Shown here: piece by piece, positions 18,726 to 64,000 of the stretch | Numbering within the stretch: the first letter of the stretch is position 1 | How the letters are laid out: each line of letters starts with the position of its first letter | Assembly: GCA_905178155.1 (NCBI GenBank) | Contig: CAJINV010000019.1 | Span: 1,248,493 to 1,312,492, forward strand | Source of the DNA: Amoebophrya sp. A120 | Taxonomy: Eukaryota > Protista > Dinoflagellata | Length of the DNA: 64,000 bases | Reading direction: 5' to 3' | Translations under genes and position numbers: made by a program | The notes under the pieces: generated by a model | What the model was told of the DNA's origin: nothing | Databases searched by the model: none | What the model saw: only the letters and a program-made list of their open reading frames with translations

Positions 18726-21700
18726 ATGGACGAGGCCAGCAAGCTTTCCCCGGGGAAGACGGAGTCCACCGCGGTGCCCTCTCCCTCGACGAAGGGCGGC
18801 TCCCCCGAAAAGGCTTCGGAAGAAGAAGTGCGGGCAAGGCTGTTCAAGGTACAAAGAGTTTTTTTTTTATCCCAGTAGCATGCTTGCCAAATAACAAAGA
18901 AATAAGGTTGTTGATCAATTGTCGCTTCTAAGTAAACTGATGACTCGTCAATCGTGGATTCTCTGCATCGTTGGATATTAATTAAGAATTTTAGACTTGA
19001 TCATGAAAAAAACACCAGGGCCTCGGACGCGACCTCCTTTTGTCGATCAAAGAAGGCTATCGAATGCAAATATTTTCGTTTTGGTTTTGGGTCTGCCAGA
19101 AACCCGTAAAAGTAGTAATTTGAATAAAAGTTAACCCACTTGCACGACCCCCGCACGACACGCTGCAGGTTTTTTTTTTGTAGCCGATATTATACGATGC
19201 AGCTCCACTCCTGCGCGGTCACTAGGCATGAATAGATTTTATCGGAGCCGGGGTTGTCATCTCAAAGCCCAGCTGCTGAACACTACATATTGATCTCGTC
19301 TCGACCCAGAAGATCGACGTGTATTTGCAATCCATAAGGGCGACATGCACAAGGCGCAAGGGCTATCCTGAGTAAAAACGTACCCACACCATAGTCAAGA
19401 TGGGGAATCGGCTAGACAAATCCACAAGTTTTGGCTGTTTTGCATGACAAATTTGGATTCGTAGTGTAGTGCTGTTTGAGCTAGCTCAGCAGCATCACAG
19501 ATCTAGCATACCATGCTGATTGGAGCATGACAAATTGCAAAACACGACTAGAAAATGCTTCTCATGGGGCTCCGCATGAGAAACGTTTTCAGGATGCAGA
19601 TTTGCATGACAACTCTGGTGTGGGTACGTTTTTACTCAGGATAAGGGCTGATCATGGGCGGTGTGGAACTGGATGCCCGGGAGCCGGTGACCGGGCGTAT
19701 CAAATGCAAAAATGTCTGGGTCTGGGAGGATGGAACTTGTGATGCTGTCTGTAGATTCCAAAAAAGTCTGTATTGCATGACCAGCAAAAGGAGTCCACAT
19801 TGTCCTACGCGGAGAGGGCATCTCTCATGCGGAATACGCACCAGAAAGCCCTCTCAAAATCAGTGATGCTAGGCCATGCATTACAGGCATGATGCGTCAT
19901 GCAAAATATGCATCACAAACCTCGCACTCTTCCAGACCCCGACATATTTGCATTTGATAGAGCGCACCGCTTTGCATCTCGCCGTGCAGATATCAGGGGA
20001 AAAACAAGTTTTGTTTCAGTGCAACAACGTGACTGATCGACATCAAAGCGCCGTCTACATCAAAACCCATAGAAGAAGCAGATCCGCGGCCATTTTTTCT
20101 GTCAGAATCTTCACGTTTAACAAACACAAACTTCTAGGGTAGAATATGTGCTGTCGTGCTTTCTATGATCTGCGAGAAAGCACAGAATTAAAGTTGTAAG
20201 GTCTTGCACTGAGTAGAACATGCTTGTTTTTCTGTCGATACCAAAAGACCGCCATGGGGGTCGTGAAGCTGCTCGTGCAACACAAGATTGACGTGAACGC
20301 GGTGGACCGCATCGGTGAGGTCACAGCCCTGCACGTCGCTGCGCACCGCTATGCCAAAGAAAAAAGCTAGCCTAGCAGTATGATCGTTTGATTTGGGAAG
20401 CAAAACAAAGCGATATAGGCCGTGTGAAATTTTTAAACTCTGTCATGGGCCGCGAGCTGTCTAGGGCATTGCAGTGTTCTTGGAACTGGGCAGGAGAAAA
20501 TGACACAAGCTTTTTTTTGCAGCAAGTGCAAGTGATGTTTTCGCATGACAAATTCGACATGTGCAGTCGGCTATGCATGACAAATTCGAGATGCTAGCTT
20601 CAATTTTCTGTTGGATAATTAAGGGCAGATGGTGATGCTGAAGCACTTGCTGGCCGCGAAGGCGAATTTGAACCTGGTCGGCGTGGAGGGCGACACTCCG
20701 TTGTCGCGGGCGGTATGACAGTGCACAACTCCCCCGCGTTCCCATTTGTCATGCAGAATACCAAATCCACGCTTTCCCTCCTGTCACTATGATGCATGAC
20801 AAGTTCTGCTAGCCCAAATAGCACTACAATCCAGCTCAAATTTGTCATGCAAAACCAGCATTCTTGCTGATGCTTGTATAACCGTTCATGCTATAGAAAT
20901 GAGGGGGAGGGGTAGTTGTGCACTGTCATAGGCGGCTACGCAGGGCCACTTAAAGGTGCTCGACTCGCTTATCTCTAATGGGGCCATCTGCGACCTGAAG
21001 CAGCGGCAAAGCATCAACGAGTGGCAGCAGGCCGAGATCGAGATGAAGCAGCTGGCCCTCCAGCAAAGCACGACGGCCTCGGGGTCGCAGCGCGGGCGGA
21101 GCCCCATATGATGGTGAACAACTCGCTCCCACTTGTTCTTCCCTTGACTTGAATAAACGCATAATGTCTACTTGCAGCAACAGAAGCAACGCCATCGCCA
21201 AAAAACAAGTATAGCTTCTGCATGACATTCACAATATCGAACGAATTCTGACAGTGATTCATTAATCACAGTTCAATATTCGGGAGGTTCATCCTGGTCC
21301 GAAATTTGTTTATGTCGGCAGTGTTTATTTCTGCAGGCGAGAAACCGGATTTGGTACTTCTGTTGCATTTACATTTGAGCGGAAATTGAAATTGTAGTAG
21401 GGCAAGATGTTTACTGTCATACTCCACGCGCAGTATGCAGGGCCATGGCGACCGCGCTTTCCAACCCGCAGTTCGGGACCGCCGGGAGCCGGTGTCTGCG
21501 CTAGTGAATATGGATTGCAAAAATATCTGGGTCTGGAAACTTGTGATGCTAAAATGTGGATGATGGAAACACACCCGAATGCAACCCAGCATGACAACTT
21601 TCCAAGACGCTTTCCCATAGGCAATCCGCATGAGGAACTGCGTTTTTGCATGTACAAAAGAGGCTCCGACTTTTGTTGGTTATGCAATACAGATTTTCTA

Positions 21701-22865: not shown

Positions 22866-22989
22866 TGGCGAAGGGTTGTCGACATATGATAAAAAGGGAA
22901 AAGTTTTTGTTTGGGTAGAACGATCAGCATGTATACGCAAAACATGAAACAAATCCTAAGCTGCCAAGTGTATCCAACATTCGCATATA

Positions 22990-23160
22990 GCATATCCTGT
23001 TTTAACAACTATTCACTCACTTACAATTTCTTGTAACATCGGGACCACATGTGCATAAAAACATGCGGCACAGACCCAGTCGAAAGTTAGCAAAAGCATA
23101 TCCTGTTTTCAACTCACTCTTCTTACAAATTCTAATCAGCAACCATGGGCATATCCTGCA
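22990..23160. repeat. Degenerate short direct repeats downstream of the ankyrin gene
   Basis: gcatatcctg occurs three times (~22990, ~23097, ~23149); two copies continue tttt(a/c)a(a)c...cttacaa(t/a)ttct. Confidence 0.5.
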
Positions 23161-24210
23161 ATCAAATCTACAGTAAAAACTTCTAAAACACTCAGCAAAA
23201 AGAAGCTATTTCTATTTTAGAGTTTTATACATAATAGCATCGCTGGATACTGCTTTTGCAGTGGCAGCAGCCTATTTTTCTACCCTGTGGAGGTTCCGCT
23301 CGCTGAAATTTGAGTCGGGACAAAAAATCTACCCTCTAAAAACAATCAAGCAAAAATCCGGTTCTGGCGCTCTGTTCACAGTAATAAACCACTGTGATAG
23401 AAGAAGATGACAACAAAACCGCGTTTCTTTTGTAGCCCACTCCAGCCGCGATACCCTCGCGACGGAGGGGGCGATTCATTTTTGGGAAAACATGAAAACA
23501 TAAACAGCATATAACATCGCAATTTTATCACGACCCTGCTTTGGGAACATGAAAACATACTGGCAACAAAATTTTTCCCGGCGCTACCTTACAGACGGTG
23601 GCAGAGTTGTGGTGCCGCTTTTTCTTTTCGTTTAGTTCGTGTTTCGGCTTGAGGGATACCTAGGATCGATTAAAGTCGAGACATCACTTACCAGAAACAG
23701 AATCAACTTGAACTTGCATTTTTTTCGTAAAAGCCTTTTCCGCGATCTTTTCCATGGTGATCAACATCATGATTTTTCGTGGCTTTTCGGATCCTCATGT
23801 GCATCACGTGATCGTACAACTCGGTAGAATTTTCCTCAGAGGTGTCGTCGCAGATCGGTACTGGCAAAGATACATCTCTCGCTCACAAGCGATCTTAGAG
23901 AAATTTTTGCGACGTTGAATGGTTTTGACAAGTTGTTTGCAGAAGTGCAAGTAGCATCATTTTGGAGTTCTTGGCAGTAAGCAGTTCTCTCGTAGCATCG
24001 TTTAGAGTGGCTCTGCAGATCTTTGTTTTTCGTACACAACATCTCTATTCGGATGGCGGAATTTTACAGACGGAAATCTTGCTAGTGCTGTGGTATAGCC
24101 AGGTTTTTGAGTGAGTACCGTTTTCTATGATGTCGTCGTTGGTTATGGTAGCGTCCGTTAGATACGATTAGCTCTAGAACAACAGCAGGAACAGCAACAA
24201 ATTGCCCCAG

Positions 24211-27200
24211 ATGAGGCACCAGCACGACCACAAGAAAAGGTTCACTTACGTCAGACTTCTTCACCTCCCAGAGACCAAGCTCGCGATGCCCTGCCGCCTC
24301 ATGCACCGGAACGTCCCGACTTTCCGGAAAGAAGTGAGAAAGGTACTGCTAGTACCGCAGAAAAAATTTCATTTCTCGACCCGCGTCCTCGTTTTCCTTT
24401 CCGCCCTGAGCCTCTTGCTTTTTGTTTTTTCAGCCCGCGGACAAGAGGTTAACAAAGCAAGTGCAAGAGATGAACCTGCAAAAGCTGGAACTGCTGGGGT
24501 CCGCGAACTACTTGTGTCAGACGCTCATCAACGACCACCTGAGCACGCTTCTAGCGGCCGCGCACTCTCCACCACCTTCGCAGAAAACGAGGTACATTTT
24601 AAGTATCAAGCGGCTGATAGTGTGGGGGAAGTTTATCCTGAGTAAAAACGTACCCACACCAGAGTCAGGATGGGGATTTTGCAACACAAACCTAGGAGTT
24701 TTGTGAGTCACGCATGACAAGTTGCACTCTGCAGTGTAGTGCAGGTTAGCAAGTGCAGCCGCGTCACAGATTCATCTGCTCATCCTGTTCACAGCATCAC
24801 AAATTCCAAAACACGATTGAAAATGGCTCTCATGCGGATGCGCATTACAAGTCTTCCTGTCTTTGCAAATCTGCATTACAACTCTGGCGTGGCTACGTTT
24901 TTCCTCAGGATAAAGTTTATTGGTGCCTCAGCTGCGGGATGTACCGGATCACTGGTGCGAAGAAGCACAGAAGTGATAGTACGGAGAGGGAGAACAAAGT
25001 TTACGGAAAAACAAACACAAAAACCGCGGTTTCCGTCGTGCTGCATGCAAAGGAGAGGAAAATTTTTACCATGTTCCACGCGGAACGGGCCTCTGAAGGC
25101 GTTGGAGACCAACATCACGAGGACAACGTCTTCGGGAAAGCCGAAGACCGCGCGTCCGTACGCCAGTGCCTGTGGTACCCCTTTCCCGGCGGGGGTGCGG
25201 CGGGGGAACGAGGTGAACAGGAGAAGGATGAGTTTGTTTCTTCGTCATCAGCATCACAAACAGTGCTTGGCGCGGAAAAGAAAGCGCTGAGAGAGATCCA
25301 ACAGAACCTTGTGAGAGCTTGGGATAAAGAAAGCAAGGACAAAGCTGGAGCTGCTTCCGGTACTAGTAGTGCATCAGACGTCGTCGACTTCGAAGCAGAT
25401 GAGCCTAGAAATTCCCTCGTCCTTCCCTGGGTGCGCGGGAAGGAAATTCGAATAGAAACAACACGACCGCCGGATAGTGGGGAGGAAGCGCCGTCATATT
25501 TCTCCTTCGCCAACTCCGCTGCATTGACGCAACCGCAAGGAAGTAGAAATCAGAGGAACAAAGAGCTTCTGACCACGAAGAAAATCACGATTTTGAAGCG
25601 AACCAAGAGAACGAATTCATCTGCAGCAGGAGACAACAGCTCACGTACTACAGGGTCCTCTACTACACCAGCAGCTCCAGCTGCAGGAGATCAACATGAT
25701 AATAAGCTTACAGAGTCCTCTACTTCTACTCCGCCTTCCTTCTACACTGCGACGGAGTACCAATCCGTTTTCGACGAGAACGAGAACTACTCGCCGCCCT
25801 TCCTGCCAAAACTCGATCCCCGGAACATTTTTGACAGTGACTGCGAGCGGTACTCGGAGCTTTTGCACGGGGAAATCCTGGCGCATTTCGGCTTGAGTGG
25901 ATTGGGCAGCGACAGGTCACTCGCACTGCTGGACTTGGTGGCCGCTTTTGATAGTGCAGCTGGTGATGTCCTCGACGGCCGTGGTGGTGGTGGGTCAACA
26001 CCATCTTCTGCCAGTGAAAAGGTAAATATCTTCCAGCCAGAAGTACTGGCAGCGGCTGGGCTGGCGCTGCCGGGCGAACTGGCCGTCGTGCTGCAGGATC
26101 CGGATATCAAATGTAAAAATGTCTGGGTCTGGAAGATTGCCAGGTTTGTCATGCATATTCTGAATGACCCTGACCCATGATGTCTGTGATGCATGCCCTA
26201 GCGTCACAGATTTTTAGAGGACTTTGCGATGCCTCTACCGCATGAGAGAAGCCCTCCCCGTGTAGCACAAACTGGAGTCCTTTTGCTAGGCATGCAATAG
26301 AGATTTTTTTGGAATCGAAAGACAGCGTCACAGGTTACCACCTTCCAGACCCAGACATTTTCACATTTGATACCAAAAATGCCGGCACAATTTCTCCCAT
26401 TAAATTTCGCCGCGGGTCAGAACTTCAGCATGCGCTTCGATTACGAATCAGAAGAGATTCTGCTCGGGACGATGAACCGAAAAGGGGATAATTATTTACC
26501 GGATGTCGCCAATCATCCAGTTCCAGCGGGAGGATTTGATGAAAACGTAGTTCTTGAGAAGAAAGTATCCAAGGGCGAATTGCTGGCGGTCAACAAGTAC
26601 AGCGTTCCGCGGTCTTCAAGAACGACGCCGCCTTCGGATTCTCACGACGGAACAGAAGAAGTCAAGGGCTCGCCACAACAACTTTTCCGGCGCGTGAAGC
26701 TGAACGTCCAGTATTCCCCCATCAAGACTCTGACACTACTACTCACGGAAGAGGGCGAGGTTTTCACGAACCTTGCGACGAAATTGGACGACATCGACCC
26801 GGTGTCCGGGAAAAACGCCGGCCAGACGGACAATGTTTGCGCGGAGACGAGTAGTAGAACTACGGATGAATATGATCAACAGTATGATGGCAGCATCAAT
26901 CAAGGAGCTTTGTCGGACGACGAGGACGACGAGGAAAGCAGTCTTTTCTTCCACCATGCAATTGCTGGAGCCGCAGGGTTATATCCTATGGGGCAAGGCG
27001 GGACCGGTGCAGCTGCTCTATCTCTTGAAAACCAGCAGAGCCTATGGAAGTTTTGGGGCACGCAAACCGTGGACGACCTGGAGTGCGTCGGGTTTGAAGC
27101 CCATCTCTCCCGGAAGAGAAAACTGATTCTGTTTTTCGAGAAAGATGTCCTTGTCCAGATTGAGGTGCGGATTAGTGGGTCTACAGGACCACAAACGGGA

Positions 27201-30200
27201 GCAGGAGCGGCGGATGGAAGGGCCAAGATTTTGAGAACGCGGGTCAAGAATTTTAGGATTTCAACATCACTACCTGCTTTTGCAGAAAACCGAGATGAAC
27301 AAGCGCCAAAAAGAACTCCTGTGCAATTTTCTTCATCCTTCCAGCTTCCCGAGTCCGAGTTTCAGCCGAAAGAAGAGTGGGGCTGCCGCAACTTCGAGCA
27401 GGAGGAGCGGGTTTTCAAGTCCCAAAACCTCCCTATGGAACTGTCAGGATTGAAATTGACAAAGTTGAAAAATTTGTGATGCATAAAACCGATACCAGTG
27501 GGAAGCCCAATTTCTAAGCGGTGCATGACAAATTTCGACGTCATCGAATTCCAGCTTCTCATGCTGTTTGGCGAAAGAAGGTATCCTTTGTCATTCTACT
27601 TTAGCAGCTCTATCCCAAACCCGAAACAGGCTCACAGTCGACCTCTCTTGCAATCCCTGCAAGAGAGTCACTTCGTGCCTTGCATTTCATGCATCACAGA
27701 TTAATATTTCAACTTTGTCGATTTCAATCTTGACACACCCATACTCCCCCTGCCCGCGGAGCACTCCTACCAAAGTGTGATACTGGCGAAGAGTGCACGG
27801 CTGAAATCTTTAGCGTTCCAGGACTTGGAGAAAGCCGTGGGGGACGGCGGGGGAAGAAGAGGTGGAAGCGACGATCCGAGTAGAAATGATGGCGATCCAC
27901 CCGACCATGCGAGGAGGACAGCATCATCATCGTCGTCTGACTCTCTCCTTGCAGGAGCCTTCAACTTCGAAAAGGCGCTTTTTGCGCTGCCCGGAGAGGT
28001 CGAGAAACTGACGAGGGTCCCGCTACCGCTATGAATTGCAAATATGTAGTCTGGGTCTGGTAACTTGTCATGGTAAATCTGAAGCATACAAAAATCTGTG
28101 TTGCATGAGTGCCAAAAGCTGTCCACTTTCGACCAAGTTCTGAGGCAGTTTCTCGCGCAGGATAGGCATGGTGGAGACCTCGCAGAGTCTGTCATGCTAA
28201 GTCCCGCATTCCAGACCTCAGCGGTCATGGAAAACCTGCATGACAAGTTGACACTCTTCCAGACCCAGACATATTTGCATTTGATAACCGCCCCAATTGA
28301 ACGAGATCCAGCACCTCGAATTTGACTACTCCGCGATAACGCACTCGCAAAAGGCACTGTCCCCCCGGTTCGTGAAATCGCACGGGCATTTCTTCATGAA
28401 CGTGCCGAACGGGCTATCACAATGAAAAACGCCCCCACCCCCGAACTTGGGAGCATTTGTATTGCAAACCTTTCCAACAGAAACACTCGCCCTCTTGCAT
28501 CTAGCAGCATCACAGATTTCCAATCGTGAATAGCGAAAGTTTGTATTGCAACAGATCCCAGCAAGAGTGGCGCTTGTCATGCAAGCAATGCTATATACGC
28601 TTACGCTTACGCCTAGACTCTGCATCACAAAGATTCATATTCCTTTCATGCGTGACAAAAAGTTTTCATTCGGAAACTTCGCATCAAAAATTATTGCAAC
28701 TTTGGGGGTGGGGGCATTTTTCACGGTAATACGGGCAGATGGCGTTAACTGCGAAGTCGGACACGGTTTTGTCGGAAAAACTTGGCTATCCTGTGCAAAA
28801 GTATCGTAGTCGTACTAATTGCAAATATGCATGACAAATCTCCTTCCTAAGGTAAAACAGCACTACAAATTCCACTTTTCTTATTGCTAAAATTAGTGAT
28901 GCAATTTATACTAGTACGATACTTTTGCAATGCATATTGGCAAAGTCGACGCAACCTTCCTTGTCACAAACTACACCAACACCGGGCAACAGGAAATCGT
29001 GTCGAATGTCGCTTGGTCTTCAGGAGCTGCAGATGGAAGTAGAAGCAGTAGCACCAGCACAGCAGGAGCTTCACCTTCAACTACAAAGACCAAAACCGCG
29101 GAGTGTGTCGTGGAAAGTTTACCCAGCCCGAGCTCTGCGGACATCGCGGATTTACGGCGGCAGGCGTCGTTTCGGGAGACGTTTGTCAAGGCCGTTGCAC
29201 TGGTCGATCCCGCAAATGGTGCGGTCCGCGAGTGCAATTTGTTCTCTTTACAGATTGGGAAGGGGAGGATTCTGCACCTGTTTGTCGATGAGAAGGATCC
29301 GACAATTGTACGGAAAATCATGCTGTTCCGCGGGCGACACCCCGACCAAGCGTTTTCCACGGTGGTTTTCCGGAATTGGAGAGTAGCTAGGCGGGAAAAT
29401 GATGAAAGTGCAAATGCGCCCTCCGAGGAACTGCATAACGTGAAGTTTCTCCACCCGTCCCCGAGTTGGCACTGCCACAAGGTGGATACGAGTCAAGTAG
29501 GAGGAGAAGTAGAAGGCAGTGGGAGTGGCCCGGTGGAACTGGCATCAACATCCGAAGAAAATAAGCTTTCTCGCGAAGTAGATGATCACATCAAGATCCC
29601 ACTGCACCACCGGTCCAGCGCTTTCAAAGACAGTCTGTTCGCGTTTTCCGGTGCTCTGGGGCAGTACCACTTGCTCGCGATTTATCACAGGAAAAAAGTG
29701 TTACAGTTACACATTTGTTGGAGTTTCTGCATCACAAAGTTGCTCGACATGGCAAAGAAAACCTGTGATGCGCAGACTATAAAGGAAAACACGTATGAAG
29801 TGAGGTTGGCAAGCATCTCCTGCATGACAGAGGTTGTCTGTCTTGCTTGTCTCCCATCAGAGTGTGTAACTGTAACACTTTTTTCTCACGATACGATTCC
29901 GCTTTTGTCCTTACCGGGGGAGCTGGATCTGCTCGTGAACAAAGACCGGGCGTTTGGACTCGACGCTGTGCGGGACTTATCCTTCTTCCATTTCGAATTT
30001 GCGGCGAGGAAGTACGATGGAGGAGGAGCGTCCTCGTTCGGAGCAGGATCTGGCGCCTCTTCCACCGCTTTATTTTCCAGAGAACCAGAACCACCAGGCA
30101 GAGGCATTGGTTCGCTCTTTCCGCTCTACCGCGGCCGACTGGCGGTGAATTTCGCGCGGAGGCTGTTCTACTTGACCGCACACAGCCGAGGTGCTGGTGG

Positions 30201-32593: not shown

Positions 32594-33410
32594 TAGAGAA
32601 CTACTACTGCAAGAAATAGAAAATATCTATTCCTTCGGGCAAAAAGTTTGGTGTATTGGAATCGGGAAAAATGAAACAACAGCACCTTCGCAGAAGATCT
32701 AGTGCAATTTTAGTGCTCCTCGCACACGGGCCCGGACTCGATCCCGCCTGGGTAAGAATGGCGCGAGTTGTGTGAAAAGATAGATTTGGTGGCTTGTTGA
32801 TTTTTTTTGCGTTGGTGTTCTGGAAAAAGGAAAAATGCTCAATATTTTTGGGCTGCCGTGAAGATATCCACTGTAGATCCATTGTCGATCTTTTCACATC
32901 CTAAAACCCTTGGTTTACAAACTAAGTTGCATACTCATAAACAGAAGTTCAAATAACTTTTGGGGGATCATGCGGTTTGCCAGCAGACGCCGTGTTTTCG
33001 CGACTACCACCTCTAGAGGCTTTTGCTTTCTCTCAAAGCTCCTGGCGTTGATTTTTGCGCGAGATACAGAAAATCTGTGACTAATTCCGAAGGCGGAACT
33101 CTGTTACGCTGTGCTCAAGAACTTTCCCCCGAGCCCAAAGTCGGCAATTATTTTCACCATGTTCGTCTGGCATTCGGGTGCACTTGTTTGCACAGGGTGA
33201 CGCATGCGTCAGGTGTATAAATGCGGGCGGTACTACGTTGGCTTAAAAATAACAGGACCACATTTAGTACAGGAGTCACATTCGTCTGTTTTGCGCACAG
33301 AAATTCAATATCAACATCCTATTGACATCAGCAGTAGAAAAAAAAAATTCAAACGACTACATAAACTTCACGCCACACTCGACCGACCAAAAATCAAGAC
33401 AAAAGTCAAC

Positions 33411-43936: not shown

Positions 43937-44149
43937 CTACTGCGAGTATGAATTTATTGAGTTTGCGGCTCGTGAAGCTGGAACCCTCGGGAACGTGGAG
44001 TGTTGCGTCTTGTGAAAACGGGCGTCATGATGCAAGGCCGAGTAAGCTCGTGCCTTCAGGTCCAAGTAGCTCCGCGAGGGATAGCTGAACAAAAATGAAG
44101 TCACTTTCAATTTCATTGTGAGCTGCAAAGAAGGAAGATGACATTATCC

Positions 44150-45850: not shown

Positions 45851-46182
45851 TAGCCCAGCGACGCTGTTTACCGAGTACCGAGATCGACAGAGTAAATGTT
45901 CGCTCTAGTAGTTCGAGGGCGGTGCCCCAAAGAAAGTGCTCAGGTTGTGAAGATCTTGGGAAAATCCACATAAACATCGGTTCGGCCTCTCGGTCTATAG
46001 GTCGGACAAGATCCACGAAGAAGCGCTTCGAATTTCCCTTCGAGAAACTACATCAGTTCATAACGATCAATTACGTAGTACCTGTGCCACTTCACTTTGA
46101 AAGTTAACTTTTCACAACTTTTGCAACCCCAATCCCGGTGGATACACAAACGAGCTATTGTTTCACACGACAAGAAGAGATC

Positions 46183-48751: not shown

Positions 48752-49296
48752 AGAAAAATGTTGTGAAACGGACGACCACGGGGCTCTTGTCTAGCAGAGG
48801 CTGCTTCCAGTAGAAACTGGATGAGTGCAAATGAATTTTGGTTCTCCCACAGCATGATGTGAAAAGACCACATTGTGAAAGATCGCAATTCAGGTAGATG
48901 CTGATTTCTCAAGCGGTTCCGGAAATACACTATGGCAGAGGATGAAAGATATGTTCGGGGTGTGGGTTGGATACGAACAAGCGCGGTGCTACGGTGTCTG
49001 CCCAACAGCGCACTATCGTTGCGTCTGAGCGATTTGAGTGGGTGCACTGGTAGAGCAGAAGAGCAGCAAGAGAGTGTAAGGAATGCAGCGACGTGAAGAC
49101 GAGACTGAGAGTGTGTTTGAGACGAGAGTGATGAATGCAACAGAACGTGCGAAGTAGAGTTTGGTCTCGTCTTGTCGTAGTAAAAAATGCGAAAAAAATG
49201 AAAATTATGTAGCGCAACAAGAGCAATGGCTTGTTGCCACGACCGTTTCATCTCGCTACATCAACTTTTGTGGCCACCTGCGTCGCCGTCCTCTGG

Positions 49297-55200: not shown

Positions 55201-58200
55201 CCCTTTCCACGACGACCTGAGAGAAGGGTCCCATCAAATGCAGCAACAGCAAGTCCAGCCTCCCGGTGGCGCGTTTCTGATGACAACCCCGACCGGGGAC
55301 CCACTTCTGAACGCCAGTGGCCAGCAGATTGTGGTGGACATGTACGGGAGACCCATTGATAAGGACGGAAACGTGATCGGGCCCAGCATCGTCCCTAACG
55401 CGCCACAACCGCCGGGGGGTGGTGGAGGTGGAAGTGTGGCCGCGCAGTCTGGCATGCAGCAACCCGCCGCGCAACCGGGAACAGCTTCGCAGCCGGCGTT
55501 TCAGACCCAGCAGTCGATGCAAGTTCCGGGAAGTACTATGGGGTTCAATCAGCAGCCCCACAACAAGAATTTTCCACAAACTTCCACCCAACATCAACTC
55601 TCCGGAACGGCGAAACCTTCTGATACGGCAACCTCCAACCTCCACCTCTACTTCCAGCAGTCCCTCGCGATTCTCCTCAAAAACGCGCAAATCCAGGCAA
55701 AGCAAAGGTACAGCAACTGTGCGCGGTTGTGCTGCGTGTTCTGCTGCACGTGTTGCGGTATTATTGTTGGGCTGTTACTTGCCGGCGCGATGACCGCGGC
55801 CGCTTCTACGAATCTTTTGCTCACCGAGTTTGATTTGGAGGAGAACAACGAGAACCGCGCAATCCCTTTGTCCGTCGCCGGGTACAATGGGCAGATCGAG
55901 CGGGAGTTAAATCTCCGCACCGGGACCCCAATCTACGGCCCAACGTCCGACATCCGACTCCCAACCGACCGCGACAAGATCTACATTGCGAATCGCACGG
56001 CGGACATTGATGCGGAGCCGGACATTTACTTTCGCTACCATTTCCGGGAGTTGAAGAAGAACTTGCTCATGAAATCCGTTGATTTACGGTTTCAAGACAT
56101 TGGGGCTGCGCAGACGAAGGTGAATTTCATATCCTGAGTAAAAATGTACCCACACCAGAGTCAAGATGGGAAATCCGCTAGACAAATCCGTAAGCTTTGG
56201 CTGTTTCGCATGACAAATTTGGACGCGTAGTGCAGTGCTGTTTGAGCTAGCTAAGCAGCATTACAGATCTAGTATCTCATGCTGATTGGCGCATTACAGA
56301 TTTCCAAATCGCATTAGAAAATGCTTCTCATGGGGCTCCGCATGAGAAACATTTTAAGCATGCAGAGTAGCATGACAACTATGGTGTGGGTACGTTTTTA
56401 CACAGGATATTTCAACTCCGTTGAACAGTTCCCCATGTACATGCTGTACCAGATATTACAGTGAAAAATGCCCCCATCCCGGAATTTGCAGAAGTTTGTC
56501 ATGCAAAGTTTCCAAACGAAAGCTTTTTGTCTTGCATCAAAGGATTGCGAGCGTTTCTGATGCAGAATGTGGGTGCGCAAGGTGCCTTGTGCATAACAGA
56601 CCCGGCTGCTGTTGGGCTGCTTCGCAACACAAATTTGACCTATTCAGCATGGAAATTCTGTGATGCTGAGATATGCAAGACGGGGAGTGTTTCCGTTGGA
56701 AAGGTTTGCAATACAAATGCTGCCAAGCTGGGGGTCGGGGCGTTTTTCATTGTAATACCAGATTGGGGAAGAACACGTGGCGAGTCTAGCAAGTATCAAT
56801 GCCGACAACACGCATCCACAGTTGCTGAAACGAACAGTTTATCCTGTGCAAAAGTACTACTGCTCGTACTAATTGCACGAGATATGCATGTTAAATCCAA
56901 CTTTCTACCTCAAATAGCATGACAAATTGAATTTTATTCTTGGGAAAATTTGTAATGCGTTTTATACTAGTGCGATACTTTTGCAATGCATACAGTTCCT
57001 TCCAGTTCAGATTTTGTCAACCTGTACACGACGAAAATTCCTTTGCTGGAGAAGTTCGGGTACCAGTTGAACTATATCAAATGCAAGTATGTCTGGGTCG
57101 GGAAGGATCCGAACTTGCGATGCGCATTTTCGAACACAGAAAAATCTCTCATGCATAGGTAGCAAAAGCTGCCCACTTTCTGTCACCAAAATAGGAGATT
57201 TCTCATGCGGGTTCGGCATTGCGGAAGCTTATCGAAAACTGTGATGCTAGAGCTTCCATGCCAGACCTTCTCTGTCATGCAAAAAGAGCATGACTCTTCC
57301 AGACCCAGATACTTTTACATTTGATAAACTACTGTCCGGCGCAGAATTTCCGGTTTTCGCACATCAACCCGAAAACCGATTTGGACGAGGAGAAGATGTG
57401 GAAGACGGTTCTGCTATCCTATGTAAAAACGTACCCACACCAGAGTTGTAATGCAGATTTGCAACGACAAAGACATTTGTGATGCGCATCCCCATGAGAG
57501 TCATTTCCAATCGTGTTTTGGAATTTGCGATGCTGTGAACAGGATCAGCAGTTCGATTTGTGATGCGGCTCTCCTTGCTAACTTGCACTACCTTACGGAC
57601 TGAAACTTGTCACGCGTGACTCCCAAAGCTCCTAGGTTTGTGTTGCAAAGTCCCCATCTTGACTCTGGTGTGGGTACGTTTTTACTCAGGATATCTGCTC
57701 GAATCCTACGGGGTGGACGAATCGCACTTGTACTACCACGGACCTTTATCTACCATCACGCATTCCAAGGCGCGGTTCCGGAATGAGGAAGCCGGGCGCG
57801 GTGTTCCCGGAGCCATCTGGGACTCGGGCTACGAGTACCACAATTTGTGCGGTTTGCAGACGCGAAGTTGCCAGTTTTCGAATTTTTCCTTCTCGAACAA
57901 TTACACGATTTCCGTGCCGGAGGGGTATGCAAGAAAAAAACTGTGTAAGTGTAAGCCTGTGATGCAGGAAATGCAAAAGTGTATCCGCTTGTCATGCTGG
58001 ATGTGCGTCATAGGCAACTTTCATGCGTGTTTCCACGTGCTAGCTGCGCATGACAGGTTTTTCCTGTAATGCAAAACGAACTTGTTTTTCATATTCATTT
58101 CCTACAAAGTTGCACTTACGCATTTTTTTTTCCTGGATAAGGGGCTATACGCAAGCAGTGCGTCGGTATCGGCTACGACTGACAACTCGTTTTTCAAAAC

Positions 58201-61200
58201 ATACACGCCAGTATGCGGAGGTGCCGGAAGTAGTTCATCTTCGGGGGGTGATTCGACAAGTCCTGTTCCGACAGTCATCCCGCAGCTGGGGAATTTGAAA
58301 TCCTGGCGGAAACGCTGGCAGTCGAGAAATCAAGTGTTACTAATGGAAAGGTACTCTGCTCAGGAGAGGAAGGAGATCTTGCAAATTTTGAACACCTTCT
58401 GCGGGGGCGCCATGCCGACGAGCGTAGTCCCATCGGGGGGCACCGCGGCGACGGCGGCGCAGAGTGAACAGTGCAGGAAGTTGGCGGAGAAGTACGCGAC
58501 GGTGAACTTGTGGTGGGAGAAAGGGACGAGTGGTGGAGGGGCAGGGATTACATCGTCGTCGTCTTCCTCAAATAAAGATTTCGACCTGTCCTGGCTTGGG
58601 ATTGCGGTGCAGAATGAAAATGGTATCACCGTGCAGCAGGACGGCAATACCAATACCTCTTACTGGTCGAATCAAGCGCGGTACACGACCATGGGGATCT
58701 CACTCTCCAATGTCGGCGATTTTTCGCAGGTAGATCCAGAGCTGCTGCAAACCACGCCTAGTACGGGGCAAGAAATAAACAAACCTCCTCTCACCGGCCT
58801 CCAGGGAAAATTCCAATACGCACAGAAGCTCTACCGCCTGCAGGCGCAGCCCGTATCAACTGCAAAAAAGTGTCTGGGCGGTCTGGAAGATTGCAACTTG
58901 TCATGCTTTTTGGGACACTAAAGAAATCTGTATTGCATGACCAGCATCAAGAAGGGTCCAGTTTGTGCTACACGGACAGGTCATTTCTCATGCGGAAGGT
59001 GCATCAGGAAGCCCTCTAAAAGTCTGTGATGCTAGGACATGCATTACAGGCATCATGGATCTTCTCCCAGACCCAGACATATTTGCAATGCATATCCCGA
59101 AACGAGTAACAAATGCTTGAAAACCTCCGACCCGGCGTCGCCCATCTACGGGCAAAACACCGACGTCGTGGCCTATGACGGCAACGAGGGATCGGCCCGG
59201 CGGGGCGGGCAAGGCGCGCGGCAGGAGTTCATCCGAATGGGCAACCCGCGATGGCACGGGTACGGGGATAAGCCCGATTACGTGTATTTGGAAAACTTCA
59301 CAGCGATGCCGTACGTGGGGGCGGAACAAGAAGAAAACAACAACTCATCTTCAATCGCAAGCACCTACGCGGCGGCGGCGGCGAACATCACGGGCCTTTT
59401 TTCCGACAAGCCCTTTCCCGACGTGGCGCTCACGGTCAACAAAGCGGACAAAGTCCAGGGCCAACTCGACGTGACCTTACACATCGCCGCGCGGGATTCC
59501 GCTTCGGACATAGCGCTCTTCCGGCGGAACATCGAAAACGCGCGGTGGAGCGAGCCGGACCCGGGTTACATTCCCTTCCTCTTATGGATTGTAAAAATGT
59601 CTGGGTCCTCTGGAAGGTTGGAACTTGTGATGCTAACTTTCCATACCTAGAAAATCTGTATTGCGTAACCAACAAAAGTCGCAGCCTCTTTTATCATGCA
59701 AAAACGCAGTTTCTTATGCGGATTGCCTATGAGAAAGCGTTTTGGGAAGTTGTCATGCCGGACTGCATTCGGAAGTGTTTTCATCATGCACATTTTAGCA
59801 TCACAAGTTTCCAGACCCAGACACTTTTACATTTGGCACCTCTCCTTCCTCGACGACTACACGGCGCAAGACTCTTTATACGACTACGTCTACGCCATGT
59901 TTGCCTGGTCTTCGGATGCGTTGTATCAAAGTGTGAAAAATCCCCCCACCCCATATCGAAACGGAAACTTCTGTTGCTGGATTTGTGTACACAAATCAAC
60001 CCTGTCTTGCAGTGAGGCACTACAAGCAACGCCTCAGCCTGCGTAGGGGTGTTTGGTTGTAGGCACTTAGCATGACAGAGGCCTGCAATGTACGTGAAAC
60101 AGCATTACAAATCGCCTCCATAAGGCTGCGAATTCTTTGGATTTGCCTTCTTGCAAGAGAGACAGGATTTGTGGTCACAAATCGACATCACAAATTTTTA
60201 GGCACATACGTCTTCAATATGGGGAGGGGGGATTTTTCCTCTCAATACGTTGCGAGCGGCGATTTCGGATCCGGCGGACAAAGTTTCCGGCAGCTGCCTA
60301 TGACCCGCTCAGACGTTACAATCTCAACTGTTACAATAGAATCTGGATTTTGTGATGCAAGAGGTGCATTATCTACCCAACTCGCATAGGTTTGCGCATG
60401 ACAAGTTCTGGAGTGCCAAACCGCACTAGAATCTTCCGAAATTTGTATTGCGAAAAGCGCAAAAATACTCTGCACGTTCCTCATGCTCTTCATGCAACAC
60501 AAATTCCAGATTCTATTGTAACGTTTGAGATTGTAACACCTGAGCAGGCTATACTGCCAGTTAGATTTTTTGACCCCCACGTCAGTGATGCAGGTTCACA
60601 CGCTGGTTTCCGCGTTTGCGAACGGGATAAGACTGAACCTCGGCTTTCCCCCCGTCGAGTCGGATGTTCTGTCCCATTTGCCGTATTTATTCTTCAGTAG
60701 CCAGGAAGTCTTATCCCCCGACGCCGGGATGCAGACGCTGGCCTTGCCGATTCTCTCCTTACTGTGGTTCCCGGTGATCACAACAAGCTTCGGGTACGAA
60801 AAAAGATTCGGGCTACTGGAGATGATGCGGATCCAAAGTTTATCCACGACGATCTACTGGCTAACCAACTACGTCTGGTTCTTCATTCTGTACTTCTCCA
60901 TCATCGGCTCCTACCTAGCTTTGTTCTACGCCGTCGCCTCCGACAACTACGATATTGGCCAGCTTTTCTTCATCCACTTTCTCTGGGGCCACTGCCAGAT
61001 CGGGCTGTCTCTACTGTGCGCCGCAGCGTTCTACAAATCGGAGTCTTTGACCGCGGTGACGTACTTCTGGATGTCCATCGCCTACCTGTCCGCCGGCCCT
61101 TTGCTAGAAGCCGCAACGATCGACGGCGGCCCGATGCCGTGGGCCCTGATTGTGTGGGGACCGACGAATTACGGCAGGAGTTTGGTGCTGGCGTTAAAGT

Positions 61201-64000
61201 ACAAGGAAACGGACAGTTCGAAATCGATGGATTTGTGGGAAAAGTTCACGGCGAGCGAAGAACAAGAGTACGGGGAACTGCTGCTAGTCCAATTCTTGGT
61301 CGGGAGTTTGGTCTTACTCGTCGCGATTCTCTGGCTCCAGGGGGTACACGTGGTCGTGTTTGAAAAGATCCGGCGGTTTGTGATGGAGAATATCGTGGAC
61401 CGGTGGATGGGGAACATCAAAGGGGAAAAGAGTGTGAAATCAGCTGCTGATAAAAAAGAACAAAATGAAAATCCATCCGCAGAAACTACAGAAGTTCCTG
61501 CGCAAGAAGAGCATCCTCAACCAGCAATCACAATTCAAGAACGCATTTCGTCTAAAGAAACCCCGATATTACAATGAAAAATGCCCCCACCCCCGAATCG
61601 TTGGGAGCATTTGTATTGCAAACCTTTCCAAATGAAACATTCGCCCTCTTGCATCTATCAGCATCACAGCTTTCCAATCGTGAATAGCAAAAATTTGTAT
61701 TGCAAAGGACCCCAGCAAGAGCGGCGCTTGTCATGCAAGCGAGGCGATACACGCCTAGACTCTGCATCAGACAAATTCATACACCTTTCATGCATGACAA
61801 AAAGTTCTCAGTTGGAAACTTCGCATCACAAATTTTCGCATCGTTGGGGGTGGGGGCATTTTTCACTGTAATACCCGACGAAAGAAGTTCTGGCGAATCT
61901 CTCGGCGGACCAGAAAATCGATTCCGATGTGCGGGTATCAAATGCAGAAATGTCTGGGTCTGGAAGGATCCGAACTTGTGATGCGCATTTTAGAACACAG
62001 AAAAATCTCTCATGCATAGGCAGCAAAAGCTGCCCACTTTCTGTCGCCAAAATGGGGGACTTGTCATGCGGATTCGGCATTGCGGAAGCTTCTCGAAAAC
62101 TGTGATGCTACAGCTTCCATGCCAGACCTTCTGTGTCATGCAAAAACAGCGTGACTTATTTTCCAGACCCAGACATTTTTACATTTGATAGCGGGAGGAA
62201 GCCGAGCGGATTCTGAAGTCCGATATCGCCGCAATGAGGCTCGCCGCGAACGACAGTTTTGAGGAAGATGACAGCAATGTGCTTTATTCCGATGCTGCTG
62301 CTGACCCCTCGACATCGAAAGCAAGAGTCGATGCGATTCAATTGCGAAACATCTACAAGCAGTACCCGGACGGGAAAAAAGCGGTAAATGGGGTCTCGTT
62401 CGGCGTGAAGAAAGGCGAGTGCTTCGGCCTGCTCGGCCCGAACGGCGCGGGCAAAACGTCGTGCATCAACCTCGTGTGCGGGCTGCAGAAATTGTCGAAG
62501 GGCTCGATTGTGGTGTCTGGGTACGAAATTTCCGCGGCGAGAACGAGGAAAAGCTCTACTTCACAAGGCGATTTTTTAAACGGCTTGCAAAGTAGAACTT
62601 CCGGCGACGCGTCCCTTTCCCAACTGTCACAGTACCTTGGTGTTTGTCCGCAATTTGACTGTGTTTGGAACGATCTCACGGTCGAGGAACATCTCGCTTT
62701 GTACGCAAGGATCAAGGGCATTTCGGGGTACAAACAGAAAGTCTTGGTGCGCAACGTCGCGGAATCTGTCGCGTTGGAGGGGGACGCTTTCAGAAAACTT
62801 GCTTCCGAACTTTCCGGGGGCATGCGGCGGAGATTGTCCCTCGCAATTTCGTTGGTCACGAACCCCGCCGTTCTGATCCTCGATGAACCCACCACCGGCC
62901 TAGACCCGGACACCCGCGCGGGCTTGTGGCAGGTGATTGCGAATGAGTCGAAGAAGCGGGCGGTGGTCTTGACGACACACAGTATGGAGGAAGCGGACGC
63001 ACTGTGTGAGAGGATTGGGATTATGTGCAGCGGAAAATTGAAGTGTGTGGGAACCCCTTTGCACTTGAAGAACAAATTTGGGAACGTATCCTATTTAAAA
63101 ACGTCCTCCTCCCCACCCCATTATAGTTGTCATGCAGATTTGCATCTACAGAAAAATCTGTAATGGACCCCCAGGATCAGGTAGACGAGGTCCCAGACCG
63201 AAGTGGTAGGCGCTTAGGGTGAACTATGTATGTAGCGCTTAGGGCCCTTCCGTACGGCCAATTTGTATGCCCGCAACGGGGTTCGCCTAAGTCGGTCATT
63301 TGTATGCAAGGCGTTGGGTTACCCGGTCGGCAGAGCCGATCCACAACGAAGGAACATTCGCAAGAGGAAGGGCGGAATTTGTATTCGTGTTCTGGGATGT
63401 GTAATGCTGTAAACAGGATGAGCAGGCTTCTTTGTGATGCGGCTGTCCTTGCTAAACAGCACTACAATACAGATGGAAACTTGTCATGCATAACTTCCAA
63501 AACTTGGAGACTTGTGTTGCAGATTTACCAACTTGGCGATGGGGTGGGGACGTTTTTACTCAGGATAGATCGGGTACATGCTCACAATCGCTTTGAACTA
63601 CGCGTCGAGTGAGCAAATGTCGCTGCTTATCAAGTGTAAAAATGTCTGGGTCTGGAAGATTCTGAGACTTGTCATGCATGTTTTGCATTGGCCAGGATGT
63701 CTGTGATGCATGCCCTAGCATCACAGATTTTTTGAGGGCTTCGCGATGCCTACTCCGCATGACAAATGTCCTCTCCGCGTAGCAAAAATTGCATTCTCTT
63801 TGCTGCTCATGCAATACAGATTTTTTTGGAATCCAAATTCAGCATCACAAGTTGCATTCTTCCAGACCCAGACACTTTTACATTTGATACTGCTGAAGCA
63901 GAAGGAGGTTCAACAGAACAGAATCTTGGCGTTCCTGAAGAACCAGTGCAAGCTGTCGACGGTTTTCCCGATCGAGAGTCGGGGGGTGTTACTGCAGTTT
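49297..64000 (+). CDS. Full-size ABCA-family ABC transporter, running off the window end; 21 introners and no canonical introns seen
   Basis: Two TMD-NBD halves. First half: IVREKRNGTLKLMRVMGL, GHNGAGKST, YSGGMQRRL, FLDEPTTGLDP, TTHSMEEAD, STLEEVF. Second half: YEKRFGLLEMMRIQSL, GPNGAGKT, LSGGMRRRL, ILDEPTTGLDP. The frame is continuous after removing each element plus 5 nt. The start could be 49297 or 49357. Confidence 0.93.
50689..50999. mobile_element. Introner family G
   Basis: tatggatgtgtcaggtttgaaatcgtcaaagttgaaa...tttcaactttgacgatttcaaacctgacgcttccata; DR cgctg/cgctg. Confidence 0.95.
51125..51270. mobile_element. Introner family E
   Basis: Family E TIR; DR cctgc/cctgc. Confidence 0.93.
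51328..51606. mobile_element. Introner family B
   Basis: Family B TIR; DR gtggg/gtgga. Confidence 0.95.
51839..52107. mobile_element. Introner family A
   Basis: Family A TIR; DR tccgg/tccgc. Confidence 0.93.
52158..52366. mobile_element. Introner family H
   Basis: tatcgcaagaagaaactgtatcactgtga...tcacagtgaaacagctttttcgtgggata; DR cgtct/agtcc. Confidence 0.92.
53616..53824. mobile_element. Introner family H (reverse complement of 52158)
   Basis: tatcccacgaaaaaactgtttcactgtga...ttttgcgata; DR ggggt/ggggt. Confidence 0.95.
53973..54252. mobile_element. Introner family B (opposite orientation to 19364/56130)
   Basis: Family B TIR; DR aacgg/gacgg. Confidence 0.95.
56130..56409. mobile_element. 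Introner family B
   Basis: Family B TIR; DR tttca/tttca. Confidence 0.95.
56454..56757. mobile_element. Introner family D (opposite orientation to 28415/61567)
   Basis: tattacagtgaaaaatgccccc...ggggcgtttttcattgtaata; DR ccaga/ccaga. Confidence 0.95.
56840..56992. mobile_element. Introner family E
   Basis: Family E TIR; DR cagtt/cagtt. Confidence 0.95.
57075..57326. mobile_element. Introner family A
   Basis: Family A TIR; DR aacta/aacta. Confidence 0.95.
57415..57693. mobile_element. Introner family B (opposite orientation to 24634)
   Basis: Family B TIR; DR tctgc/tctgc. Confidence 0.95.
57926..58139. mobile_element. Introner, singleton
   Basis: tatgcaagaaaaaaactgtgtaagtg...cacttacgcattttttttcctggata-like end; DR agggg/agggg. 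Confidence 0.92.
58854..59094. mobile_element. Introner family A (similar to 19698)
   Basis: Family A TIR; DR gcccg/tcccg. Confidence 0.93.
59583..59838. mobile_element. Introner family A (opposite orientation to 21509)
   Basis: Family A TIR with 3' end mutated to ...tttggca; DR cctct/cctct. Confidence 0.92.
59924..60247. mobile_element. Introner family F
   Basis: Family F TIR; DR cgttg/cgttg. Confidence 0.95.
60299..60553. mobile_element. Introner, singleton with long TIR
   Basis: tatgacccgctcagacgttacaatctcaactgttacaatagaatctgg...ccagattctattgtaacgtttgagattgtaacacctgagcaggctata; DR ctgcc/ctgcc. Confidence 0.95.
61567..61873. mobile_element. Introner family D
   Basis: Family D TIR; DR cccga/cccga. 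Confidence 0.95.
61936..62190. mobile_element. Introner family A
   Basis: Family A TIR; DR gcggg/gcggg. Confidence 0.95.
63087..63567. mobile_element. Introner family B carrying a ~200-bp internal insertion
   Basis: Family B TIR; DR gaacg/gatcg; 481 bp versus ~280 bp for most other B copies. Confidence 0.9.
63628..63889. mobile_element. Introner family A (similar to 26105)
   Basis: Family A TIR; DR ctgct/ctgct. Confidence 0.95.

Follow-up and report, generated by a model that had tools for sequence, protein, structure and literature searches.

The 64,000-nucleotide stretch of Amoebophrya sp. A120 DNA analysed here (the window) raises the question of how introns that lie in their host genes in either orientation can be removed precisely. 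About 65% of A120 introns are non-canonical, and their removal is an open question in the genome study (PMC7789003). It had been proposed for this locus that introners occur in both orientations inside sense-strand genes, and that such symmetry points to recognition of the stem formed by the terminal inverted repeat (TIR) and of the flanking direct repeat (DR). The first part of this original prediction is borne out below; the second holds only in part.

Introners of the window and their host genes

The window contains 42 elements of 146–481 bp, of the TAT...ATA type with 5-bp DRs. All 42 begin with TAT, 41 end with ATA and 32 are flanked by a perfect DR. They carry the A120 introner motif (TAT, 7 nt and at least three A), with A at positions 11–14 in 33–38 of the 42, and an exact 5-bp DR, within the published range of 3–5 nt, flanks 163 of 202 sister-strain elements picked by their TIR alone. 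The window elements are likely to be the introners described for A120 (PMC7789003). They are repeated end to end, form 23 families together with sister-strain elements, vary in presence and absence, and are bordered by a target-site duplication. For example, a sister-strain locus (L051) has four insertions found only there, an empty site for 31606..31865 and a site without the element 30624..30879; empty sites have one DR copy. At the L051 site that corresponds to 29683..29893, an introner that would be in frame and free of stops if retained, there is an element of another family. The sister-strain data are a set of loci rather than a whole assembly, and the arm and DR counts below are based on 291 elements. 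A search of viral contigs gave no match; a TIR family with Copia/Gypsy-like ORFs is described for A120 in the accessible part of PMC12130899.

All host frames of the window are on the + strand. Twenty-one introners lie in an ABCA-type transporter gene (49213..64000, stop-to-stop and running off the window), whose protein has two ABC_tran and two ABC2_membrane_3 matches in Pfam. Nine are in a gene of no assigned function (24178..32590) that has a EukProt homolog (P0002) and an ortholog in L051, two in a gene whose 1180-aa product has no Pfam match (33201..37397), and one each in an alpha/beta hydrolase gene (46108..48748; 807-aa frame, Abhydrolase_1) and an alcohol-dehydrogenase-like gene (42138..43933; 513-aa frame, ADH_N). 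The others interrupt coding segments at 19336..21936 (six introners; open segments of 67 codons and 171 aa after removal, putatively ankyrin-like by eye) and 38615..40256 (two introners; frames of 253 and 136 aa).

These host genes read correctly after removal of each element with one DR copy (element + 5 nt). Such removal gives a stop-free frame of 3039 aa over the 21 elements of the ABCA gene, colinear with its EukProt homolog P0001, and one of 2020 aa over the nine elements of 24178..32590; with random removed lengths, none of 2000 choices leaves the ABCA frame open. Junctions fall inside + frames of at least 120 aa for 39 of the 42 elements, and the remaining three are in the 67-codon segment. 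As originally predicted, the frame rule holds in either orientation. An old element outside the 19364..63889 range of that prediction (16525..16794, DR identical at two of five bases) also continues the 12907 frame when it is removed with 5 nt. Removal of element + 2 or element + 8 nt keeps the frame as well, but was rejected because it leaves gaps relative to P0001 at most well-conserved junctions; the P0001 alignment scores are 7946 for + 5, 7791 for + 2 and 7749 for + 8.

Assembled contigs point to removal from transcripts at non-canonical borders, if the contigs called X1 are RNA; this is a guess, none of the eight runs that contain the stretch being recorded as RNA. X1 has zero depth over 44100–45427, where X5 has 43–50, as expected of RNA. 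At least five elements are missing from X1 contigs by exact length, and the genome is departed from at no fewer than three more. X1 record 1 bridges the introner of the hydrolase gene, where a contig joins 47638 to 47859 and 220 nt (215 + 5) are gone. Record arithmetic likewise gives element + 5 at 53616 (absent from record 2), at 53973, and at 61567 and 61936 (both absent from record 5), and record 4 departs from the genome at 59577, next to 59583..59838. In X5 contigs (records 6, 7, 9, 10, 12 and 13) the exon continues unbroken into the element at a single-copy depth of 41–47. Two raw RNA runs from 2026 contributed seven and three reads. A DNA-like run dominates the joints between contigs and genome, of which 15 are listed and 789 lie beyond the listing, and no family is bridged in both orientations among the contig matches listed.

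Orientation of the elements

Small transposons inside the genes of the parasite Amoebophrya lie forward about as often as backward. Family B is found in the reference (+) orientation at 19364..19643, 24634..24912 and 56130..56409 (each with a perfect DR), at 30624..30879 and at 51328..51606 (DR mismatch at base 5), and in the opposite (−) orientation at 53973..54252 (mismatch at base 1), 57415..57693 (perfect DR) and 63087..63567 (481 bp, mismatch at base 3). Family A is + at 19698..19959 (mismatch at base 2), 28030..28286, 39254..39518, 39846..40097, 51839..52107 (mismatch at base 5, synonymous), 57075..57326, 58854..59094 (mismatch at base 1) and 61936..62190, and − at 26105..26372 (mismatches at bases 3 and 4), 35106..35368 and 63628..63889. 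Also present both ways are family A-prime (+ 21509..21762; − 59583..59838, with a perfect DR and an eroded 3′ end, GCA for ATA), family D (+ 28415..28731 and 61567..61873; − 56454..56757) and the 209-bp family C (+ 52158..52366, mismatches at bases 1 and 5; − 53616..53824). Three pairs are oriented alike, all +: family E (20714..20930 and 47644..47858), family F (27434..27743 and 50689..50999) and family G (34069..34452 and 59924..60247, the latter with a 2-nt insertion in its 5′ arm). No strand is assigned to 29683..29893, 31606..31865 or the old element, to 19991..20240 (mismatches at bases 1 and 4) and 21107..21421, which have no close relative in the window, to three short introners (28787..28936, 150 bp; 51125..51270, 146 bp; 56840..56992, 153 bp), to the A-related 43176..43427 and C-related 57926..58139, or to 60299..60553, which has a long TIR.

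Pairs were scored with 35 nt cut from each element end, so that the TIRs cannot drive the scores. For 52158/53616, which had been described as reverse-complement relatives within the ABCA gene, the score is 194 in opposite and 20 in the same orientation. The corresponding values are 283 and 50 for 53973/19364, 320 and 51 for 53973/56130, and 270 and 21 for 57415/24634 in family B; 169 and 24 for 56454/28415 and 176 and 30 for 56454/61567 in family D; 200 and 23 for 26105/19698, 188 and 23 for 63628/19698, 141 and 23 for 26105/58854, and 160 and 30 for 63628/58854 in family A; and 276 and 18 for 59583/21509. The top score among 500 shuffled control pairs is 26, and BLAST agrees with the reverse-complement calls. 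All 11 pairs thus score far higher as reverse complements, and the sets proposed for families A, B and D are confirmed.

A tally relative to the host gene, which the original prediction had called for, extends the result to the sister strain. Among 255 strand-assigned elements of the window and sister strain, 203 fall in the 23 families, and these are divided roughly 50:50. The largest families split 24:22, 11:13, 12:12, 8:11 and 12:3; related pairs number 458 in the same and 473 in opposite orientation, and one family of 23 reaches p = 0.035 before correction. Of 50 multi-element loci, 48 received a single strand call.

Position of the cut

The DR decays while frames stay open: of 1455 DR positions, 90 are mismatched, the repeat is imperfect in 65 of 291 elements, and even an identity of two in five is tolerated. 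DR identity is therefore not needed, and the DR is unlikely to be recognised by the excision machinery. What stands of the proposal that symmetry reflects recognition of stem and DR is the indifference of removal to orientation.

The cut points are likely to obey one fixed, directional rule. The RNA-like contig at 63087 retains left DR base 3 (offset of at least 3); L051:3334 equals the Gln of the window's empty site only with left base 4 exonic; use of right base 2 at L054:2522 of the sister strain leads to a stop; and the Ile of P0001 at 51328 requires right base 5 (offset of at most 4). The upper and lower bounds come from one orthologue comparison each and assume a single fixed offset. The left base is kept in the RNA-like contig at 53973, the contig at 58854 restarts at right base 2, and a homolog fits left base 1 at 52158. 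Given one fixed offset, we infer a cut after DR base 4, so that the intron would be N-UAU...AUA-NNNN and the cut asymmetric, falling 1 nt upstream and 4 nt downstream of the repeat. Codon usage at mismatched DR bases, too weak a test to confirm base 4, scored 7 vs 5. At 26105, P0002 has a Thr that does not discriminate the DR copies, and other homolog searching around this site yielded no homolog or only fragments ending before the junction. A preference for G at DR base 4 (22/42 in the window) was dropped as evidence because in sister loci (78/213) it is at the flanking level (81 at −8, 80 at −7). The target-site duplication has little sequence preference.

Splice signals and constraint on the arms

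The original prediction had named canonical signals of its own for each orientation as evidence against symmetric excision; they were looked for and not found. With the cut after base 4, GT/AG occurs in 0/42 window elements, and across the six equivalent offsets GC-AG is found in 2/42 (offset 1) and GT-AG in none, so that a canonical U2 donor (GT or GC) with an AG acceptor is not a feature of these elements. G occupies +1 in 96/291 and is not required, and AG is not seen at the final two intron positions, so that the step-2 pair usual for the spliceosome is lost, a point against spliceosomal removal. The branch motif YTRAY, sought in the last 60 nt of 291 elements, occurs 118 times in sense and 144 times in antisense, CTRAY and ACTAAC show no sense excess either, and none of 120 4-mer pairs compared between strands remains significant after correction (lowest p = 0.014). 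There is an A at −7 in 288/291, but this base belongs to the TIR.

The conserved bases are UAU (+2 to +4) and AUA (−7 to −5), and at the outermost pair the arms differ in constraint. The outermost 5′ T (U at +2) is unchanged in 291/291, whereas the mirror 3′ A is changed in 7/291 (p = 0.016; 0 vs 6, p = 0.03, for codon-assigned elements only). Two of the seven changes are A to C, which cannot pair, and five are A to G, which keep a U-G wobble; another eight, at 5′ base 3, break the pair in open frames. Other tests of pairing are mixed. A terminal stem is predicted in 40/42, the exceptions being 59924 (poorly predicted) and 56840. Arm mismatches on the sense strand show no G-U excess (234 G-U vs 240 A-C), one-sided indels number nine in each arm, and the folding energy is −103 kcal/mol in antisense vs −100 in sense. 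In the arms, C>T is commoner than G>A (48/1477 vs 25/1453; interior 259/5968 vs 235/5944, counts not independent), a hint of pairing. A role for the TIR stem in removal is possible.

Possible mechanisms of removal

In either orientation, a TIR gives the intron one and the same linear 5′ sequence and one and the same linear 3′ sequence, and stem and DR are therefore not, as had been argued, the only orientation-independent features. Nor are spliceosomal introns at odds with both orientations, because the introners of Polarella and Aureococcus use spliceosomal-type sites both ways, according to the accessible text of 10.1101/2020.10.14.339549. We give about an even chance to the explanation that a divergent U2-type spliceosome reads directional signals, which the inverted repeat would supply identically in either orientation. 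A DNA transposase would insert the elements regardless of orientation and leave the 5-bp duplication behind. With the 5′ cut following DR base 4, the intron would begin N-U-A-U-(C/G), in which U+2 and A+3 would match a canonical donor minus G+1. The 3′ cut, 4 nt beyond ATA and with no acceptor dinucleotide, may be positioned by its distance from the outermost ~10 nt of the 3′ arm, where the U-tract ends at −15 and the A at −7 could serve as branch point. The ends may be brought closer by the hairpin, which need not be the recognised feature.

In Table S4 of PMC7789003, all nine predominant A25 motifs start with TT and all nine A120 motifs with NT, which implies that two strains invaded separately share U+2. 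The same study found 83 of 89 spliceosomal proteins and U2, U4, U5 and U6, with U1 snRNA undetected in A120 and A25. Elsewhere, the U2 spliceosome of Fritillaria handles TIR-derived non-GT/AG introns (10.1101/2025.08.15.670264; PMC13326754), and in Yarrowia, Trichomonas and Giardia the branch lies at a short, fixed distance from the 3′ site (PMC2483917). Against a divergent spliceosome, element 59583 is without the candidate branch A, yet appears to be removed. The A120 acceptors of Table S4 are mostly A-N, which offset 4 does not predict; they are probably the aligner's choice inside perfect DRs. The five A to G changes would also be predicted if pairing mattered.

A second scenario, possible but doubtful, is a non-spliceosomal cut-and-ligate reaction on RNA, by analogy with Euglena, in which a protein would bind the TIR hairpin and cut 1 nt upstream and 4 nt downstream of it; this is the earlier idea of stem recognition minus the DR. 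The outer 20 pairs have a mean predicted probability of 0.5–0.9 in the 42 window elements, the scissile bases at both cuts are sequence-free, and Euglena introns have fixed asymmetric offsets (CAG +3 / CTG −8) and may leave as circles, according to the accessible text of PMC12501133. The apparent lack of U1, the weak C>T excess in the arms and the wobble pairs kept in five of seven terminal 3′ changes fit as well. Arguing the other way are the equal G-U and A-C counts, the two A to C changes and the eight at 5′ base 3 that break pairs in open frames, the one-sided indels in both arms, and elements 59924 and 56840, which lack a predicted terminal stem yet lie inside the intact ABCA frame, together with the nearly full U2 spliceosome. 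A combination of the two, in which spliceosomal chemistry uses the hairpin in place of U1/U2AF as a ruler for both sites, would account for a precise 3′ cut where AG is missing and for the seeming lack of U1, and the data fit it and a divergent spliceosome alike; the same tolerance of broken pairs counts against it, and we regard it as improbable.

Programmed DNA excision would make orientation irrelevant, the elements leaving the DNA before transcription. TIR and DR are a DNA-transposon substrate, the exact loss of an element and one DR resembles clean excision, and the RNA nature of X1 is a guess. In ciliate-type excision (IES), however, the element is missing from expressed DNA, and the elements are present in X5 contigs at the depth of a single copy, although contigs drop rare variants and excision confined to certain stages is conceivable. 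With the zero depth of X1 over 44100–45427, an arm asymmetry that tracks the gene strand, and the treatment of the elements as RNA-seq-supported introns by Farhat et al. (PMC7789003), this scenario is very unlikely. Least credible of all, and largely refuted, is a canonical donor, branch point and acceptor for each orientation, as reported for other both-orientation introners in the accessible text of 10.1101/2020.10.14.339549: the family B 3′ arm contains a poly-T-CAG look-alike, but the contig at 53973 bypasses it, and the GC-AG, GT-AG and 4-mer results above leave it little room.

Comparison with known systems

Neither the elements as such nor introners that act in both orientations are new. 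Like the A120 introners of PMC7789003, those of the window share the inverted-repeat motif, belong to many families and lie in co-oriented genes; the published elements have DRs of 3–5 nt (5 bp in the Fig. S19 legend) and form non-canonical introns of ~240 nt on average with non-canonical borders. That study describes splice sites whose position relative to the hairpin varies, whereas here removal is always element + 5, with one inferred cut offset. Its text does not discuss element orientation ('strand' is absent, and 'orientation' refers to genes), which here is ~50:50. We found no report of Amoebophrya introners in either or both orientations in the openly accessible literature searched.

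The introners of Polarella glacialis and Aureococcus anophagefferens are likewise DNA transposons with TIRs and target-site duplications (TSDs) that act as introns either way. In the accessible text of 10.1101/2020.10.14.339549, their splice sites are of the G[T/C/A]...AG type, derived from the element or the TSD, and one orientation is favoured; in Amoebophrya neither end is canonical and the elements are unbiased. Fritillaria borealis also draws its splice sites from the TIRs of non-autonomous DNA transposons, and non-GT/AG introns dominate there, handled by a modified U2 spliceosome with U1 present (10.1101/2025.08.15.670264; PMC13326754). Fritillaria borders are mostly AG-A(N), as far as they are cited in PMC7789003, whereas the bases cut in Amoebophrya fall within the variable DR.

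The nonconventional introns of Euglena are similar in being MITE-like, with terminal pairing, borders blurred by DRs and fixed asymmetric offsets. As far as the accessible part of PMC12501133 goes, their motifs are CAG at +3 and CTG at −8 rather than TAT/ATA, it holds no U+2 rule, and knock-in established there that the inverted repeat is required. We consider it possible, if less than probable, that A120 has a machine that needs neither G+1, AG nor DR identity, relies only on a U-A core in the donor and on the TIR as a ruler to cut 1 nt ahead of the repeat and 4 nt past it, and may do so without a spliceosome. If this is true, any insertion, at any site and in either orientation, would be a clean intron from birth, and Amoebophrya would be a second, independent case of Euglena-like splicing. 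Unbiased orientation with an almost free target sequence would explain the tolerance of tens of thousands of insertions. One fixed cut, an invariant U+2 and no acceptor dinucleotide would give exact predictions that make the splicing of the published elements testable, and the fixed cut would provide a rule for correcting gene models.

Element removal and host reading frames

Between positions 19364 and 63889 the window carries 42 elements, 146-481 bp in length. All 42 start with TAT, 41 end in ATA, their terminal inverted repeats (TIRs) are ~15-40 bp long, and they are flanked by a 5-bp direct repeat (DR) that is perfect in 32 of the 42. Element 59583 is included despite an eroded 3′ end; a candidate at 37572 was left out for want of a DR. 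In start motif (TAT, then seven variable bases and a run of A), size and DR, the elements match the introners described for Amoebophrya sp. A120 (PMC7789003) and are likely those published elements; the feature is real. In positions 1-16500 the search turned up no TAT...ATA element bearing a 5-bp DR, and short coding-like segments there are broken up by something else. An old element at 16525-16794, outside the range of the original prediction, has a DR identical at two of five positions, and a 1212-aa frame still continues after its removal with one DR copy. The stretch 44100-46000 is GC-rich (0.63 over 44001-46000); both strands carry several open frames, and X1, a contig run tentatively taken as RNA, barely covers it.

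Removing each element plus one DR copy leaves a stop-free 3039-aa ABCA frame across 21 elements and a 2020-aa frame across nine, whereas random removal lengths gave the open frame in 0 of 2000 trials. When retained, 41 of the 42 elements introduce an in-frame stop; the sole exception, 29683-29893, stays in frame without a stop and would add 72 aa. Alignment to P0001, an ABCA homolog, scores highest with this removal length (7946 versus 7791 and 7749) and shows no gap at the conserved junctions in either orientation, among them 52158 and 53616, and 51328 and 57415. The original prediction of one frame rule for either orientation is thus borne out.

X1, which may be RNA, has zero depth at 44100-45427, where the DNA-like contig run X5 has a depth of 43-50. 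One X1 join, 47638 to 47859, lacks 215+5 nt. Record lengths are consistent with removal of the element plus one DR copy at 53616 and 53973 (middle exon of 144 nt) and at 61567 and 61936 (57 nt); a tail of 126 nt likewise fits removal of 60299 and 59924. None of the families is bridged in both orientations among the contig rows listed, and retention levels cannot be read from contigs. At 59296-59491 an X5 contig departs from the window at nine places where X1 agrees with it; this variant is probably an ABCA paralog or allele.

Orientation and turnover

All 11 opposite-orientation pairs named in the original prediction proved to be reverse-complement relatives: with TIRs trimmed, they score 141-320 in opposite orientation versus 18-51 in the same orientation, against a maximum of 26 among 500 shuffles. 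Window families split 5:3, 8:3, 2:1, 1:1 and 1:1; three further pairs share an orientation, and 10 elements have no family partner.

Scanning metagenomes for a TIR word of family A gave 144 stretches, resolved into 142 sister-strain loci (556 kb), all from one contig set. These contain 370 unique elements, of which a window-trained codon model assigned a gene strand to 213 and 157 were excluded; at 48 of 50 multi-element loci all calls fell on one strand. In the combined 255 elements (213 plus the 42 of the window), 203 of which fall in 23 families, orientation relative to the gene is about balanced, with splits of 24:22, 11:13, 12:12, 8:11, 12:3, 4:3, 4:3, 2:5, 4:3, 2:4, and so on. The single skewed family, that of 34069 and 59924, is the 12:3 split (p=0.035, uncorrected, the only one to reach it). 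All families share an internal 9-nt motif, GCATNACAA, which recurs with its complement in a mirrored layout (279 versus 295), peaks just inside each TIR, and is likely a transposase-binding repeat.

Window 29422-33926 has an orthologue in sister locus L051 (92% identity over aligned bases; exons ~92%). Empty sites there have one DR copy and filled sites two, which identifies the DR as a target-site duplication. The three window and five L051 elements include no shared copy, and one of the L051 insertions is 4 nt away from site 30624 of the window; element turnover is very fast. Elements 29683-29893 and L051:4340-4545 share their insertion site and DR sequence but belong to different families (core score 33, against 138-195 to relatives elsewhere), which suggests intron replacement or parallel insertion.

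Position of the cut

Where the DR is perfect the splice junction is hidden; a mismatch exposes it. The 291 elements of the final set are the 255 strand-assigned elements and 36 of 57 found by BLAST, for which intact ends were not demanded; of the others, one was already counted and 20 were excluded for a missing strand call or unclear borders. The DR is imperfect in 65 of the 291, with 90 of 1455 positions mismatched (26, 16, 12, 22 and 14 over the five positions), a level near the 8.3% interior divergence from the family majority. Frames stay open at two-fifths DR identity (L051:3334, L059:5889 and window 16525). The DR had been proposed as a recognition feature; decay near the interior rate, with frames still open, speaks against that role.

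DR base 1 comes from the left copy at 53973 and 58854 (X1) and 52158 (homolog), as does base 2, where the right copy would give a stop at L054:2522, and base 3 at 63087 (X1). For base 4, L051:3334 yields the Arg-Gln of the window's empty site only at offset 4 or 5, the offset being the number of left-copy bases kept in the exon; base 5 comes from the right copy at 51328, with Ile in P0001. If the cut is fixed, its offset would be 4, the two decisive bounds resting on one orthologue each, and the intron would read N-UAU(C/G)...UUUU-N7-AUA-NNNN. Intron phase at this offset is uneven in the 255 strand-assigned elements (122, 55 and 78 for phases 0, 1 and 2), although the DR has little base preference.

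Mechanism of excision

Occurrence in both orientations had been read as implying strand-symmetric excision. This does not follow, because a TIR supplies the same linear 5′ and 3′ ends either way round. At offset 4 (n=291), position +1 is free (A80 C67 G96 T48), followed by U at +2 in 291, A at +3 in 289 and U at +4 in 283; on the 3′ side are A at -7 (288), U at -6 (289) and A at -5 (284), with -4 to -1 free. The search for TAT...ATA itself imposes most of this conservation; the informative quantity is how the two arms differ, since both were detected symmetrically. The outermost base is changed in no 5′ arm and in seven 3′ arms (p=0.016), versus two and two at base 2 and eight and three at base 3. 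Among the 20 excluded rows are apparent 3′ changes at L002:1359 and L107:593 and changes at both ends at L058:945; a few have indistinct 5′ ends, and a 5′ exception may exist. Table S4 of Farhat (PMC7789003) lists TT donors in strain A25 and NT donors in A120, which puts U at +2 in each strain; the acceptors it gives for A120 are mostly A-N, a form not predicted by the offset-4 model.

We give an even chance to a directional spliceosome that reads TIR-borne signals. A120 has a nearly complete U2 spliceosome with no U1 snRNA detected (PMC7789003), TIR-derived non-GT/AG introns in Fritillaria are processed by a modified U2 spliceosome (10.1101/2025.08.15.670264; PMC13326754), and Yarrowia, Trichomonas and Giardia are known to anchor the branch point within a few bases of the intron's 3′ end (PMC2483917).

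Stem-guided excision, as proposed for nonconventional introns of Euglena (PMC12501133), is less likely, though a serious competitor. Folding predicts a terminal stem for 40 of the 42 window elements, the antisense strand folding as well as the sense, and a U-G wobble is kept in five of the seven changed 3′ outermost bases; arm mismatches are equally G-U and A-C (234 versus 240), C>T exceeds G>A in the arms (48 versus 25), and one-sided indels occur in both arms. A hybrid of spliceosome and stem recognition seems improbable. DNA excision we regard as very improbable: X5 contigs at single-copy depth continue across exon-element borders, so the elements are retained in DNA. Least probable are canonical splice sites in each orientation, whose absence is as the original prediction expected: neither ends nor DR of the 42 window elements offer GT/AG, and a search of the introners for strand-specific branch motifs and 4-mers came up empty.

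Comparison with known systems

Orientation balance, the proposed fixed cut and the U+2 rule for A120 introners are new relative to the literature searched, whose figures and supplements may show part: they are absent from the text portions of PMC7789003, PMC9860276, PMC12130899 (for supplement 8, over 22 of its 58 A120 rows), PMC11282704, PMC11453091 and PMC8469720. In Polarella glacialis and Aureococcus, introners likewise form introns either way round, with spliceosomal-type sites (10.1101/2020.10.14.339549); the present introners are unusual in lacking GT/AG both at the element ends and in the DR.
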